From the NCBI GenBank assembly GCA_963718615.1, contig OY970368.1:2464001-2528000 (forward strand): a DNA stretch of 64,000 nucleotides. The letters are read 5' to 3'. Of this stretch, positions 21,961 to 27,330 are shown piece after piece. Each line of letters opens with the position of its first letter. Within the stretch, counting starts at the first letter, position 1. The translations under genes were made by a program, and so were the position numbers. Source of the stretch: an uncultured cyanobacterium. GTDB lineage: Bacteria > Cyanobacteriota > Cyanobacteriia > PCC-9006 > JAAUQQ01. The notes beneath the pieces were generated by a model. The model did no database searches and had not been told where the DNA came from. It saw only the letters and a program-made list of their open reading frames with translations.

Positions 21961-22985
21961 CTAATGATAGAAAAAGTAAAATGGATTTGCTTTTTTACGA
22001 TCTATGCGGCAACGAATTAAGTGACCTTCAAAGGTTCTCGGTTCTGGAGCTTCTGTAATTATTGAGCATTGACCTGCTCCTTCTCTAACAAGAGATTGGC
22101 GTGCAAATAAAATGTCACCAAATTCTAGTAAAGACTTTTCATACTCAGATTCAGATAATTGAACTCTATCCATCTCCAAATCGCCAATTCTCTTGTTTCC
22201 GAATAGCTCTCCCATGTTGACCATATAAAAGCCATTACCTCGAACACTGCGAGGCTTCGTTAATCCATTACGCAATGGAATCAGGAAAGTTGTCTCGAAG
22301 GGAGCGATATGCCAACCTGCGGGGATTTCGTCTAGTTCTGACGGTTCCATTGCGCCGCCGGATGACTTGTAGGCTTGCCGTCGGCGTTGGGGAACTCGAA
22401 ATCGATGAACCAATGTTTGAAGAGGGTTTGCGCGATCGCCTCTAGCGTCTCGTTCTGTTTGCGGAGGTTTTCGATTTTGCGATCGAGGATAGATAAAGTC
22501 CGGCCTATCTCCTGCTGCTCTGGAAGACTGGGCACTGTGACAATGATTTCGCTACAGTCGCCAACTCGCATATGTTCAACCGTAGAACCCATGCCAAAGC
22601 TTTTAATTTGATGCTGGACTTCTCTGGAACAAAATGAGTAGAACAAGAAATCAGGATCAACAATATTTGGGTTTGGCCTATACATCATTAGACGCTGGCC
22701 TAGAAACAGGTTCTCTCCATCAATTATTTGCCCAACTTCTCCGAGAGGAGCTTCTCTCGTAAGAATGATGTCACCTCTTTGTAGAGTAGATCGTCGAGTC
22801 CATGTACGAAAAACATCCTCAGTCACATAATTTGTACTCGACAAATCAACGCGACCATCTTTGACATTTGTTGTTCTGATCATCCTATAAGGAGTGACCT
22901 CATCAACGGTGGGGGCCGTTTTATTAACGCAGTCGATAATGGCCTCACAAAGTTTGTCGATCTTCACTTCTTCCCAATCGCTCAT
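21961..22985 (-). pseudogene. hsdS: Type I RM specificity subunit, frameshifted near 22372 and truncated in TRD2
   Basis: TRD1 + PSLPEQQEIG...LEAIAQTLFKHWF. The linker FPNADGKP/YKSSGG...EIPAGW is split across two frames. TRD2 ends abruptly at the hsdR junction. Confidence 0.9.
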
Positions 22986-23026
22986 AGCTCAAACCCCACC
23001 TTCGCCAACTGTCCCTTTATCTTCAT
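22982..23026 (-). repeat. hsdM 3'-end copy (mini-ORF MKIKGQLAKVGFEL*) overlapping the hsdS ATG
   Basis: Matches the HsdM tail [16 protein letters not shown] overlap with hsdS. Confidence 0.8.
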
Positions 23027-23043
23027 AAAAAACGCTAATTTCC

Positions 23044-23829
23044 TTAACTAGCAGCCGGAGTCGTTAGCATTTCAACAAGCCGCTCCGAATCCGACCAATA
23101 GACAATATCTGACAACTCCTCTAGCTGCCGAATCGTCTCCATTTGCCAAACATCCAACGTGTCATCAAACAAAGAAATAAAGCGCAATGGCTGCGCCCCA
23201 AACTTAAACTGCGTCAAATCCATCCAAGCCGCAACCACATTATTGGCCTTCGTATTAGCCGCCGCCCTACTCCCCGTACTCAGCACCTGCACCAAAGAAC
23301 TATGATTAGGATGAAACGTATGAAAATCAATCCGCCAGCTACGCCCCGACCGACCCGATAACTTTTCGTTGGCCTGAAATCTAACTCGATGGTCACTCAA
23401 CAATTCAGCCACCTCATCCTCAAACGTCGAAACCAAACGAGTTCTCGACAAAAACCAGAGATTGCTAACCGCCACCGTTGCCTGAGCCAAGCGGGTTATC
23501 GCCGCCGCCAAACCCTCTATCCCTCCCACACGAACAATCAACGCCCCTCGATACTCCTCAACCTCATGGGTTAGCAAAATATCCTGAAGCACCTGCTCTT
23601 GCTTTTTCGACAAAAACTCGCTAGTCGTTTGAGACATCAACCACCGCTTCGTTTCACCCAAATCCGTGATCAAAGGGCGATCCTGAGAAACTTTGAAATA
23701 GAAATCAATCACATCTCCGTCAGGATAGAGATAAGGCGTGCGAATCCGCGTGAACCCATTCACCTCTTCTTTACAAACAAAGAGGCTCCCAAAATTTTCA
23801 GCAATGGCCTGACAAGGTTTGCTAATCAT
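23044..23829 (-). CDS. DUF1828/DUF1829-like protein (possible nuclease-like C-terminal domain)
   Basis: RIRTPYLYPDGDVIDFY, ITDLGET, FEDEVAELL, LSGRSGRSWRIDF. Confidence 0.75.
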   Translation of the reverse strand: MISKPCQAIAENFGSLFVCKEEVNGFTRIRTPYLYPDGDVIDFYFKVSQDRPLITDLGETKRWLMSQTTSEFLSKKQEQVLQDILLTHEVEEYRGALIVRVGGIEGLAAAITRLAQATVAVSNLWFLSRTRLVSTFEDEVAELLSDHRVRFQANEKLSGRSGRSWRIDFHTFHPNHSSLVQVLSTGSRAAANTKANNVVAAWMDLTQFKFGAQPLRFISLFDDTLDVWQMETIRQLEELSDIVYWSDSERLVEMLTTPAAS

Positions 23830-24278
23830 AGGAACAAATCTAACTGATTTTGAGGTAAGGGCTGCATAACCCCATTATGACAAAGAGCAGCCTCTCGGCA
23901 GAATTGTTGCCAAACCTTTACCGGTTCAGCCGCAGAGGCTGTGATGTCTGGCGGTACATAAGCTTGCTTATCACGATAGAGTTCACTCCAGCGGTGCTTG
24001 TGTTTTTCCCCCACCAATTTTCCATCAGGATTCCGATGATCTTTGCCCAAGTCAAGGCCATATATCCTGCCGTAGGGTGGACAGATAATGTGATAGCTCA
24101 AGGCCTCAACAATGGAATTATAAGTGCCACGAACTGATAACTGATAATTACCCGAATTGGTTTGAACTTCAGCTTTGAATTTGAGCCATAGGCTTTCTTC
24201 TTTCCAGAAGATATCGCCTTGTATGGTCTTGGATTTATCGTTCAAGATTCCCTCAAATTCTGCCTGACTCAAAGCCAT
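23826..24278 (-). CDS. DUF6978-like protein with HxNPDG..HKH motif and C-terminal QLDLF
   Basis: LSQAEFEGIL, RIYGLDLGKDHRNPDGKLVGEKHKHRW, ends PQNQLDLFL; ATGA overlap with the downstream gene. Confidence 0.75.
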   Translation of the reverse strand: MALSQAEFEGILNDKSKTIQGDIFWKEESLWLKFKAEVQTNSGNYQLSVRGTYNSIVEALSYHIICPPYGRIYGLDLGKDHRNPDGKLVGEKHKHRWSELYRDKQAYVPPDITASAAEPVKVWQQFCREAALCHNGVMQPLPQNQLDLFL

Positions 24279-24341
24279 AGCCCAAAACCCATTTCACTAA
24301 TCGTATAAGTTGATCAGCAATCTCAAGAATGCGCGATCGGT

Positions 24342-25112: not shown

Positions 25113-25158
25113 TAAATCTCTCCCTCCAATTCTCTCAAGGTTTCTTCGTCTTCATCCC

Positions 25159-25296
25159 CTAATCCAGAGCAGAGGTTGGAGGCAGATGCGCCGCCAGCTC
25201 CGCCGCTAGCATCCTCACCTGGAGAACCCGTACATTAGGCATTGGACGATGTAGTTCAGAAAGAATATTGGAATCCAACAAAAATCGAATCGTCAT
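25159..25296 (-). pseudogene. Truncated VapC/PIN toxin fused to a degenerate hsdM-tail fragment
   Basis: MTIRFLLDSNILSELHRPMPNVRVLQ (PIN N-terminus) followed by VRMLAAELAAHL..., resembling Hsd[13 protein letters not shown]. Confidence 0.75.
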
Positions 25297-25550
25297 AGTT
25301 CAATTTCCCGTCCTGGACTCCGATCGCGCAAATCGGCAAAATCCTCATCCATAAACTCAATCCCTTCTTGCTCAATCCGCTCTCGAAACTTCAAAACCCC
25401 CGCCCAAAATGTATCACCATTTCCTTGAGACGCTTGAGCCGATTCTTTCGCCGCGACCTCAGACAACCGTTGTGACAACACCAGCAACAGCGAAGCCTGA
25501 TCCTGCACCGATAAATCATCTAGAGATCGAATTACATCCTGTAAAGTCAT
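25293..25550 (-). CDS. Putative VapB-type antitoxin
   Basis: 85 aa ending FADLRDRSPGREIEL, typical of cyanobacterial antitoxins upstream of PIN toxins; ATGA overlap with the PIN remnant. Confidence 0.75.
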   Translation of the reverse strand: MTLQDVIRSLDDLSVQDQASLLLVLSQRLSEVAAKESAQASQGNGDTFWAGVLKFRERIEQEGIEFMDEDFADLRDRSPGREIEL

Positions 25551-25704
25551 GACTGAACCTCCTCAATCACTAGTTTTTCTCAACATCAAACCGCTCAAAA
25601 TTTGCCTTCGTCGCATACCGCTGAAATACCTGCTGCGTCTTCTCTCATTCGACATTGCTATCTGGCGTGTCCTCTCCTTTCCCGTAGCTTCCCCAATAGC
25701 GCCA

Positions 25705-27330
25705 TCAGCTCAACCCCTCCAAATCAAAGCCCACCTTCGCTAACTGTATTTTAATCTCCCCATCCAACGCCGCCGCTTCCGCCATCTGCGCCGCCAACTC
25801 CGCCGTCAAAGCCCCCATCTTCTCCTCAAACGGCACCCCATCTTCCACCTCATCCGGAATCCCCACATACCGCCCCGGCGTCAGCACAAACCCGTGCTTC
25901 TCAATCTCCGCCAGCGTTGCCGACTTACAAAACCCCTTAATATCCGCATAGTCTCCCCCATCCCGCTTCCACTCCCGATAAGTCCCCGCAATCCGCTGAA
26001 TATCTGCCTCATCAAACGCTCGATTGCGCCGATTGACCATATAGCCCAACTCCGACGCATCAATAAACAACACCTCCCCCTTCCGATTCCGGTTCTTATT
26101 GCCATTCTTATACCGACTCAAAAACCACAAACAAGCCGGAATCCCCGTGTTGTAAAACAACTGCGTCGGCAACATCACAATGCAATCCACCAAATCCTGC
26201 TGCACCAACCCCTTACGAATCTCCCCCTCCCCACTCGTATTCGACGACAGCGACCCATTCGACAACACAAACCCCGCCGCCCCTGTCGGAGCCAAGTGAT
26301 ACAAGAAATGCTGCACCCAGGCAAAGTTGGCATTCCCCACCGGCGGCACCCCATAATCCCAGCGCCCATCCTTCCGCAGCAAATCCCCGCCCCAATCACT
26401 GTCATTAAACGGCGGATTCGCAATCACAAAATCTGCCTTCAAGTCCTTATGGGCATCATTCAAAAATGACCCCTCCGGATTCCAGCGAATATTCGAGCCA
26501 TCAATCCCCCGAATCGCCAAATTCATCCGGCACAGCTTGTAGGTCGTCTCATTACTCTCCTGCCCATAGATCGAAATATCATCCAGCCGCCCCTGGTGAT
26601 AGCTAACAAACTTCTCACTCTGAACAAACATGCCCCCCGACCCACAGCAAGGGTCAAACACCCGCCCGTGATACGGCTCCAGCATCTCCACCAACACCCG
26701 CACCACCGCCTCCGGCGTATAGAACTGGCCCCCCTTCTTGCCCTCCGCCAGGGCAAACTGCCCCAAGAAGTACTCATACACCTGCCCCAGCAAATCCTGC
26801 TGCCTGGGCGCTTCCCCCATCGACTCCGCTTCTAGACTCAATTGCTGAACCGACGCCGAGGGTGCCTGGGCTAAATTGACACTGCCAATATTGTCAATCA
26901 ACCCACCCAAAGAGGTTGGATCCAGCTTTTGCTGCCCATACACCTTTGGCAAAATACCCTTGAGCAGCTTGGCATTGTTTTGTTCGATCGCCTCCATCGC
27001 CTCATCCACGCGCTGGCCAATATCTGGCTGCTTCGCCTGGGCCTGCAACGCCGACCACCTCGCCTCAACAGGCACAAAAAAGACATTCTCCGCCTTGTAT
27101 TCATCCGGATCTTCCGGGTCCGCCCCTTCGTACTCTCCCTCCCCAGCAATCAGCGCTTCGTGCAACTGTTCAAAGGCATCCGAAATGTATTTGAGAAAGA
27201 TCAACCCCAGGACGATGTGCTTATACTCCGCTGCGTCTATATTTTTGCGGAGCTTGTCTGCGGCTTTCCAGAGCTTTTGCTCTAAGGTTTCACTACTTTT
27301 TTGAATTTTGGTGGACTTCACGTCAGACAT
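25705..27330 (-). CDS. hsdM: Type I RM N6-adenine methyltransferase subunit
   Basis: [41 protein letters not shown]; frame intact. Confidence 0.96.

Follow-up and report, generated by a model that had tools for sequence, protein, structure and literature searches.

Searches for new immune systems now make use of defence genes nested in restriction-modification (R-M), BREX and similar operons, and PrrC in EcoprrI is a case of a defence gene embedded in a type I R-M operon. Insertion with long target duplication, reportedly treated by Nobusato et al. in 2000, is the described mechanism that the arrangement reported here appears to resemble most closely. In the sections of Furuta et al. (2010; PMC2853133) that concern it, R-M units are described as inserted in this way, without mobility genes, in many phyla including cyanobacteria, the repeats being variable and over 30 bp long and the mechanism unknown. 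That defence genes can be embedded in type I R-M operons is known from the relevant parts of a preprint (Payne et al. 2024, 10.1101/2024.01.29.577857), and links of RhuM and PrrC to R-M from the corresponding passages of Anantharaman et al. (2013; PMC3710099). Here we describe an hsd locus in a 64,000-nucleotide (nt) stretch, hereafter the window, of a contig of an uncultured cyanobacterium. All features of the locus lie on the minus strand, and between hsdM and hsdS it holds toxin-antitoxin (TA) and defence-type cassettes whose boundaries are each marked by a copy of the hsdM 3' end, or tail.

The likeness to insertion with long target duplication lies in the flanking repeats and in the lack of mobility genes. 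Long direct repeats of variable length, more than 30 bp, flank the units in both cases, and those treated in the relevant sections of PMC2853133 are 85-97% alike; here they measure 130 nt at 90% identity in the window and 96 nt, about 80 nt and 110 nt in three hsd loci of other genomes (L078, L065 and L057; L numbers denote the loci compared). Transposase or integrase genes are absent from the published cases as far as those sections go, and no mobility gene was found at the present locus, serine recombinases and transposases not having been searched genome-wide. The published repeats can also drive amplification, with which the tandem 160-nt units of L057 may be compared. The differences concern what is inserted and how often. 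In the published cases an R-M system enters any locus, whereas here small TA and defence cassettes sit in an R-M operon and always at a single site, the hsdM end or junction; the events are stacked, with up to six repeats per array, and the repeats are mosaic and shared between genomes. As in the embedded defence genes of the preprint, within the parts concerned, the cassettes are co-oriented inside hsdMSR, with the PADLOC candidates PDC-M24 and PDC-S09 in the window, RhuM as cargo in L078 and YhcG in L076. The preprint differs, supplements aside, in that its main text gives no insertion route and contains the word 'recombination' 0 times, the discussion offering only the idea of a 'genomic sink'. 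Among the titles and abstracts searched, supplements not being covered, there is no description of hsdM-end copies between cassettes.

The hsdM 3' end is present three extra times (T2, T3 and T4) between hsdM and hsdS, in addition to T1, the last ~100 nt of hsdM itself (25705-25807, minus strand; other coordinates in Table 1). Each module boundary holds a tail copy, the modules being the VapB/PIN fragment, MNT-HEPN, DUF6978-DUF1828 and hsdS, so that repeat searches and alignments bear out the four tails and the boundaries as a first-pass annotation of this DNA had described them. A repeat search of the window paired 24342-24471 with 25678-25807 as a 130-nt repeat of 90% identity, which an anchored alignment resolves into ~100 nt of the hsdM end, the stop codon and 27 nt of the next open reading frame (ORF); it also returned a 47-nt family of three copies (22989-23035, 24388-24434 and 25724-25770) that are 72-74% identical. 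The homology of the T1/T3 unit stops at a CGATCGCG stretch (window 24330-24345), which resembles a GCGATCGC palindrome recurrent in the repeat lists of the window. The T3 protein is 87.5% identical to the hsdM tail (E 6e-15), and over the 32 codons common to T1 and T3 there are 4 amino-acid vs about 10 nucleotide changes. T3 begins with an ATG that overlaps the HEPN stop and ends with a stop overlapping the following ATG (TGATG), and at T4 the stop and the hsdS ATG overlap as ATGA; the stop/start overlaps reported at T3 and T4 are thus present.

The two other copies are shorter or decayed. Over 13 residues T4 agrees with the hsdM tail at 77% (E 0.004), and it scores 10.6 bits with the 45-residue tail profile against a noise ceiling of 9.0, which is marginal alone; its end point and overlap are identical to those of functional hsdM-hsdS junctions. 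T2 matches the tail at 56% over 16 amino acids (E 0.027) and is invisible to the protein tail profile. Its DNA is collinear with the functional hsdM-MNT junctions of L103, L114 and L017, at 58% over 161 aligned nt, with an exact run of 19/19, a single 7-nt gap and a matching stop/ATG overlap. The two MNT-like stubs of the array, which the first-pass annotation had picked out, are likewise real. The first nine codons of stub 1 match stub 2 and full-length MNT genes elsewhere, and a full-length homologue of 97 amino acids follows a tail copy in L103 (L103:3036-3329, NTP_transf_2 6e-11).

Comparison with other loci shows that the tails are composite. The tail 3' end covaries with the downstream gene, in functional tails and copies alike: all eight tails in front of hsdS or an hsdS stub end with a 4-nt ATGA or GTGA overlap, and all ten in front of MNT-type genes have 3-5 extra codons, in most cases before TGATG. 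Copy starts, in turn, covary with the upstream cassette, and the partners behind the joints differ. The PIN-tail joint is alike in L102 and L104, the HEPN-tail joint in the window, L102 and the orphan L106, and the YafQ-type-tail joint in L105 and L017. With a front part tied to the upstream cassette and a rear part tied to the downstream gene, the tails are mosaic, as expected from exchanges inside the tail. The resident functional tail is the nearest neighbour for only one of the 12 copies compared, T3 of the window (0.90); for the others, the likeness to copies of other genomes (0.92, 0.88) exceeds that to the functional tail of the same locus (0.60-0.78). Of 13 copies, six share an 8-nt motif. 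The starts of the copies are clustered, 12 of 18 falling at profile positions 13-21, equivalent to 72-96 nt before the stop, and every one of the 18 cassette-flanking copies holds 33 codons or fewer. Tail fragments are also attached to MNT or MNT-HEPN cassettes that have no hsdM in the surrounding ~5 kb (L109:5811-6184 and L106:5546-7078); the neighbours in L109 are presumably housekeeping genes, a resemblance taken from ORF starts without a domain scan. We read the tail copies as putative mosaic leaders and homology patches that are carried with the cassettes.

The pattern recurs across phyla. In a broad set of 80 hsdM loci from many phyla, 81 with the window, each hsdM stop was located, giving a search space of 589 kb downstream and 520 kb upstream. 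When every tail was searched, strong matches lay downstream and on the same strand only, in L057 (two copies), L065, L076, L078 and the window, and none was found in the 520 kb upstream. The top seven matches of the tail profile are all downstream on the plus strand, the best score elsewhere being 9.0 bits. An hsdS gene lies downstream in 69 of the 81 loci; it abuts hsdM in 23 and is separated from it by a gap of 227 nt or more in 46, and five of these 46 cargo-bearing loci have tail copies. The duplicated tail flanks a RhuM gene in L078 and a YhcG nuclease gene in L076, and in both the copy terminates in an ATGA overlap with the start of hsdS. L057 has two tandem 160-nt units, each made up of a stub of the hsdS start, a small hairpin repeat and 88 nt of tail. 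A match in L069 (E 4.9e-4) lies 8.8 kb downstream, far from hsdM, and was treated as chance.

Two side observations concern the loci compared. Each tandem unit of L057 holds a 31-nt palindromic repeat between hsdM and hsdS (L057:11590-11930); this peptide-coding repeat also occurs twice in the L057 hsdM as in-frame inserts, which points to a small mobile hairpin element. A YhcG/DUF1016 PD-(D/E)xK nuclease gene is very frequent in these hsd loci (identified by Pfam in L076 only). It lies between hsdS and hsdR in L105, L111, L112, L113 and L122, its positions elsewhere are L076:11545-12615, L065:5069-6223 and L027:11512-13185, and in L076 and L065 it is the cargo adjoining the tail copy.

Closer to the window, 401 genomes of the class were scanned with the last 120 HsdM residues, which gave tail-only matches beside hsdM in four genomes, and 24 cyanobacterial loci were then mapped with the profile. 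In 155 kb of these loci the plus strand gave 29 matches scoring at least 9 bits; the minus strand gave none, its highest score being 7.0. The hsdM gene abuts hsdS in five mapped loci. Extra tails occur in 6 of the 20 cargo-bearing loci, the window counted: six in a 6-kb array in L102, two in L103 and one each in L104, L105 and L017. These five loci, with hsdM genes 80-91% identical, share the architecture of the window locus with other cargo. L112, L115 and L116 have the single-copy form of the junction. In loci lacking obvious copies, short T4-like remnants before hsdS amounted to one sub-threshold match (L103, 6.9 bits), which was not counted. The cargo of related loci comprises VapBC, YafQ/ParE-type TA, two kinds of MNT-HEPN, PDC-M24 and Tox-PL-2, and the PDC-M24 pair also occurs in the hsd loci L024, L076, L078 and L113, as judged by ORF similarity or inspection rather than Pfam. 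Variable cargo among related hsdM loci had been set beforehand as a test, which these differing cassettes pass, and tail copies at cassette boundaries are found in other genomes in both the broad and the cyanobacterial sets. In L102 a Tox-PL-2 (papain-fold toxin) ORF and a 121-amino-acid ORF lie between two tail copies (L102:5370-6109), the latter ORF ending in a tail fragment. In L108 hsdM is internally deleted, codon 40 being joined to the last 8 codons, and is followed by MNT-HEPN and then by a separate 95-codon hsdM C-terminal fragment (arrangement at 309-1322); L108 may represent an intermediate stage at which deletion gives rise to tails.

The repeats are unlikely to be an assembly chimera. 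The genome is a single closed contig of 6.1 Mb, identity between the repeats is only 90%, and the HEPN-T3, T1-stub-VapB and MNT-T2-PIN junctions are spanned, at 95-99% likeness, by independent metagenome contigs from related organisms. In the genome the 130-nt unit is confined to the window copies, apart from a weakly matching stretch at another, unrelated hsdM locus (L014; contig 1, ~690.8-694.4 kb, outside the window). L014 was considered as a further example and set aside, its hsdM belonging to a different family, being frameshifted and having no tail array. That hsdM, at 40% identity, contains a long coiled-coil insert and is frameshifted close to its end; it is directly followed by two ORFs, one of 165 amino acids in opposite orientation and one of more than 324 amino acids, which we take, from the ORFs without a domain scan, to be an IS200/IS605-type pair. 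Genome G001 carries a frameshifted relative with different cargo. When the junctions of L076, L078, L065 and L057 were compared by blastn with the remaining 80 loci, only tails and no matching hsdS were found.

The modules themselves were checked against Pfam and PADLOC, which confirmed their identities. Adjacent predicted MNT and HepT-like genes, whose ORFs overlap at 24822-24832, make up a HEPN-MNT pair, and PDC-M24A followed by PDC-M24B gives the PADLOC candidate PDC-M24. The VapB-like ORF has no match in Pfam or PADLOC; in L102, L104, L108 and L110 the ORF ahead of the full PIN gene is 52-60% identical to it. The 45-codon PIN fragment has no Pfam match and is 76% identical over 25 amino acids to the start of a 141-amino-acid PIN-type ORF in L102, and the pair lacks the complete toxin of a VapBC system. 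At a deletion joint at 25219, one metagenome contig matches both sides with 349 letters of its own in between, and two other metagenome contigs have loose ends exactly there. The extra letters and the loose ends indicate that the PIN gene of the window lost ~350 nt after the array had formed, and the array formerly contained a full VapBC pair.

The host operon is a decaying type I R-M operon. HsdM carries both type I domains (N6_Mtase and HsdM_N), and the locus has neither an intact two-domain HsdS nor an intact HsdR, which makes it a degraded member of the hsdMSR group. The hsdS frames, of 217 and 150 amino acids, are frameshifted with respect to each other and truncated inside the second recognition domain, and the cut end runs into remnants of N-terminal hsdR codons; as the second hsdS domain abuts these codons, a deletion took the end of hsdS together with the start of hsdR. 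Three lesions affect hsdR: its first ~156 codons are out of frame with the rest, it has an internal deletion, and its C-terminus is truncated. Its upstream part contains stops, and against a 1083-amino-acid homologue in L104 only residues 157-895 and then 1023-1036 align by BLASTP. The in-frame internal loss corresponds to residues 896-1022 of that homologue (window 19187-21975). The lesions in hsdS and hsdR leave the restriction system dead, unlike hsdM, MNT-HEPN and the PDC-M24 pair, which appear intact. The locus is flanked by uvrB (17082-19154) and by a CIA30-domain gene followed by the genes for ribosomal proteins L21 and L27, all housekeeping.

Table 1. Features of the hsd locus, with positions in the window (E-values follow the Pfam and PADLOC family names)
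Feature	Position	Strand	Description
hsdM	25705..27330	-	541 amino acids, intact; Pfam N6_Mtase 2.9e-107, HsdM_N 1.5e-27; PADLOC MTase_I 1.9e-195
MNT-type stub 1	25658..25705	-	15-codon ORF; ATG overlaps hsdM stop (TGATG)
VapB-like antitoxin candidate	25293..25550	-	85 amino acids
PIN (VapC) N-terminal fragment	25159..25296	-	45-codon ORF; 3' part reads into T2
T2	~25113..25219	-	decayed tail copy with stops and a 7-nt gap; ends TAATG at MNT start
MNT nucleotidyltransferase (MntA-like antitoxin)	24822..25112	-	96 amino acids; NTP_transf_2 2.2e-17; PADLOC PDC-S09 7e-27
HEPN RNase (HepT-like toxin)	24476..24832	-	118 amino acids; HepT-like 4.5e-24
T3	24369..24479	-	36-codon mini-ORF with own ATG; tail profile 34.7 bits
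MNT-type stub 2	24253..24369	-	38-codon ORF; first 18 codons MNT-like; overlaps DUF6978 start
DUF6978 protein, PDC-M24A	23826..24278	-	150 amino acids; PF22398 6.9e-18; PDC-M24A 7.3e-68
DUF1828 protein, PDC-M24B	23044..23829	-	261 amino acids; PF08861 8e-13; PDC-M24B 1.2e-110
T4	22982..23026	-	14-codon mini-ORF, copy of the last 13 codons of an hsdM tail
hsdS pseudogene	21961..22985	-	overlapping frames 22985-22332 and 22413-21961; Methylase_S 5.1e-16; PADLOC Specificity_I on both pieces
hsdR pseudogene	19187..21955	-	PADLOC REase_I spans model positions 123-846 of 1029

The best explanation for what is directly observed (the copies, their recurrence, the strand bias, the mosaic make-up, the relatedness across genomes, and the lack of an integrase nearby and of a folded site) is, at a probability of about 0.55, that tail-linked blocks were joined by long duplication and then altered by tail-mediated exchange. 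We propose that the hsdM-hsdS junction would have collected three small TA or defence cassettes in the following way. In this hsdM lineage the next gene starts on the hsdM stop codon, and the former first genes after hsdM may have been the MNT-HEPN pair, the MNT-type stub that now precedes DUF6978-DUF1828, and hsdS. Each block is still preceded by 14 to about 35 terminal codons of an hsdM gene, and such blocks, each a tail plus the genes that followed it, would have been joined head to tail with the joints inside the tail or at its start; with joints in these places, each insertion would have left a duplication of ~45-130 nt of the hsdM end or junction. The first entry of a cassette would thus be at the hsdM stop/start junction and be accompanied by a long duplication; the ~100-nt tails could then act as shared patches of homology through which cassettes are added, swapped and lost between hsd loci of different genomes. 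The recombination route would probably be RecA-type exchange, circle integration or break repair. The tails may also serve as short translated leaders that preserve the stop/start overlap for the next gene, so that a role in translational coupling seems probable; for EcoKI, the section of PMC3510504 that deals with the junction describes hsdM and hsdS as overlapping by 1 nt and translationally coupled.

Several observations weigh against this explanation. Taken singly, T4 and T2 score weakly. Divergence is 10% of positions between T1 and T3 and 22-40% between other copies and the resident tails, a likeness low for efficient RecA exchange. No conspecific pair of empty and occupied sites was found, hsdM matches of E 1e-100 or better being present in 6 of 61 relatives and in none of seven same-family genomes. 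No excision or loop-out joints were seen in four runs, all of them metagenome contigs of other organisms and not the source reads; the best public run contained 0.18 of the sampled words, so the absence of the joint there is uninformative for this strain. The fraction of 6 in 20 cargo-bearing cyanobacterial loci is enriched, since L102-L105 were fetched after being flagged for extra tails, and 13 of the 20 have no tail copy (4 of those 13 are cut by contig ends), as do 41 of the 46 cargo-bearing loci of the broad set at the level of detection used. L118, L124, L126 and L127 are multi-cassette arrays without tails, so tails are not required for stacking. Coupling, finally, would serve no working system in the window, where hsdS and hsdR are already dead.

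These points also limit what had been proposed from the letters alone. The suggestion that the hsdM tail is a homology arm for integrase-free capture fits the boundaries, the variable cargo, the mosaic tails and the kept overlaps, and it fails as an exclusive route, given that multi-cassette arrays without tails exist. The idea of preserved translational coupling holds for the overlapping stop/start contexts and not for their present use in the window. The analogy with orphan-module arrays of Rhs/CDI loci was drawn as well. In those loci the orphan modules are toxin tips, which come to be fused in frame with the main gene. Likeness lies in modules stacked behind a main gene, each after a fragment of it usable as homology, and in the Tox-PL-2 toxin cassette of the L102 array; the analogy breaks down at the fusion, as the tails end with a stop, the cargo consists of separate genes never fused to hsdM, and the main gene is a methylase.

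A more far-reaching version, which we hold only tentatively and regard as rather doubtful, is an integron-like platform without an integrase, in which the hsdM-tail segment (~100 nt, encoding the HsdM C-terminal helix and the overlapping stop/start) would be both attachment site and portable translation leader, and tail-flanked TA and defence cassettes would excise, pass from one genome to another and re-enter any hsdM tail. Such a platform could be driven by host recombination or by an embedded nuclease such as the YhcG-type gene; that this nuclease makes the breaks is speculation. An integron cassette array proper would have IntI with attI and folded attC sites, and the present locus has no integrase and no significant tail fold.

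Another explanation is that the copies are fossils, that is, former functional tails of this lineage and not parts travelling with cassettes. A resident hsdM body would have been replaced serially by an incoming hsdM with its own cassette, through a homologous crossover in hsdM and an illegitimate second join at the start of the resident tail. Copies that differ from the resident tail are what hsdM replacement should leave, the 3' part of a tail would stay with its downstream gene, the functional tail of L104 is of another class than the copy before its hsdS, and microhomology-like sequence is present at the HEPN-T3 joint. We nevertheless consider it unlikely. Matching cassette-tail joints recur across genomes with different downstream partners, the 8-nt motif is derived and occurs in copies of four genomes and in 0 of 17 functional tails, and tail fragments accompany MNT cassettes outside hsd loci; nor would random illegitimate joins in a 1.6-kb gene be expected to yield copy starts clustered at positions 13-21.

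Block joining with tail-mediated exchange also has to be set against deletion, as adjacent hsdM paralogues or tandem hsd operons with their own cassettes might have been reduced by deletions of the hsdM bodies, hsdS and hsdR that spared only the tails. L108, with its internally deleted hsdM and 95-codon C-terminal fragment, fits such a process, the PIN, hsdS and hsdR genes of the window are full of deletions, and the MNT and hsdS stubs have deletion-type joints. The difficulty is that many independent deletions would all have had to stop within the final ~100 nt of a gene 1.6 kb long, that no hsdS or hsdR remnants lie between cassettes except hsdS stubs of 7-12 codons, and that a likeness between copies of different genomes exceeding their likeness to resident tails is left unexplained; this origin is quite improbable.

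Site-specific recombination in trans would make the tail an att-like site for a recombinase encoded elsewhere, with accretion giving the arrays, as in integrase-less cis-mobilisable elements and integron cassettes. In islands at the 3' ends of genes, the insert supplies a replacement end, the displaced end stays as a direct repeat, and tandem accretion gives arrays. The locus shares with them an intact gene, direct repeats of the gene end and arrays separated by gene-end copies, and the clustering of copy starts 72-96 nt before the stop holds in several phyla. It differs in lacking a cognate integrase, in units of only ~0.7-1.3 kb, and in repeats that consist of a coding helix and a stop/start overlap with no defined att core. 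The lack of an integrase nearby, already remarked in the first-pass annotation, extends further than the housekeeping flanks: no tyrosine integrase (PF00589) was found within ~0.7 Mb of the locus in its own genome, serine recombinases not having been searched, and the ORF maps of tail-bearing loci contain none by inspection, BLAST labels and a few Pfam scans rather than a full Pfam scan. No invariant core is evident beyond coding conservation, six tails gave no attC-like fold (z-scores +0.3 to -1.1), and the pattern spans phyla with very different tail sequences, so that a recombinase acting in trans is very improbable. The use of tRNA genes as integration targets is discussed in the part of PMC2853133 that concerns them. 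The weakest alternative, that the mini-ORFs encode functional peptides, free copies of the HsdM C-terminal helix that would modulate HsdM-HsdS assembly or sense its disruption, draws on the open frame, start codon and stop at the next gene's start kept by most copies and on the excess of silent changes between T1 and T3, but is scarcely credible given relaxed sequence at conserved tail positions, stops or frameshifts in T2, the L102_7993 context and L108, lengths varying from 13 to 36 codons, and the fact that the silent-change excess can date from a time as working hsdM tails in separate genomes.

If tails were attachment sites in the sense of the platform outlined above, this would be a general mechanism for the 'embedding' of defence genes across phyla. 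As we read them, with tail-linked joining and exchange as the favoured explanation, tail copies would be datable physical footprints of cassette entry at the hsdM stop/start junction, and would show cassettes moving with a piece of hsdM and arrays being rebuilt by exchanges inside that piece. The model is testable through excision and re-entry at tails, dependence on recA or a nuclease, and translational coupling. The tail signature may also provide a simple sequence marker for cassette boundaries, and hence for new cargo genes, in any genome.

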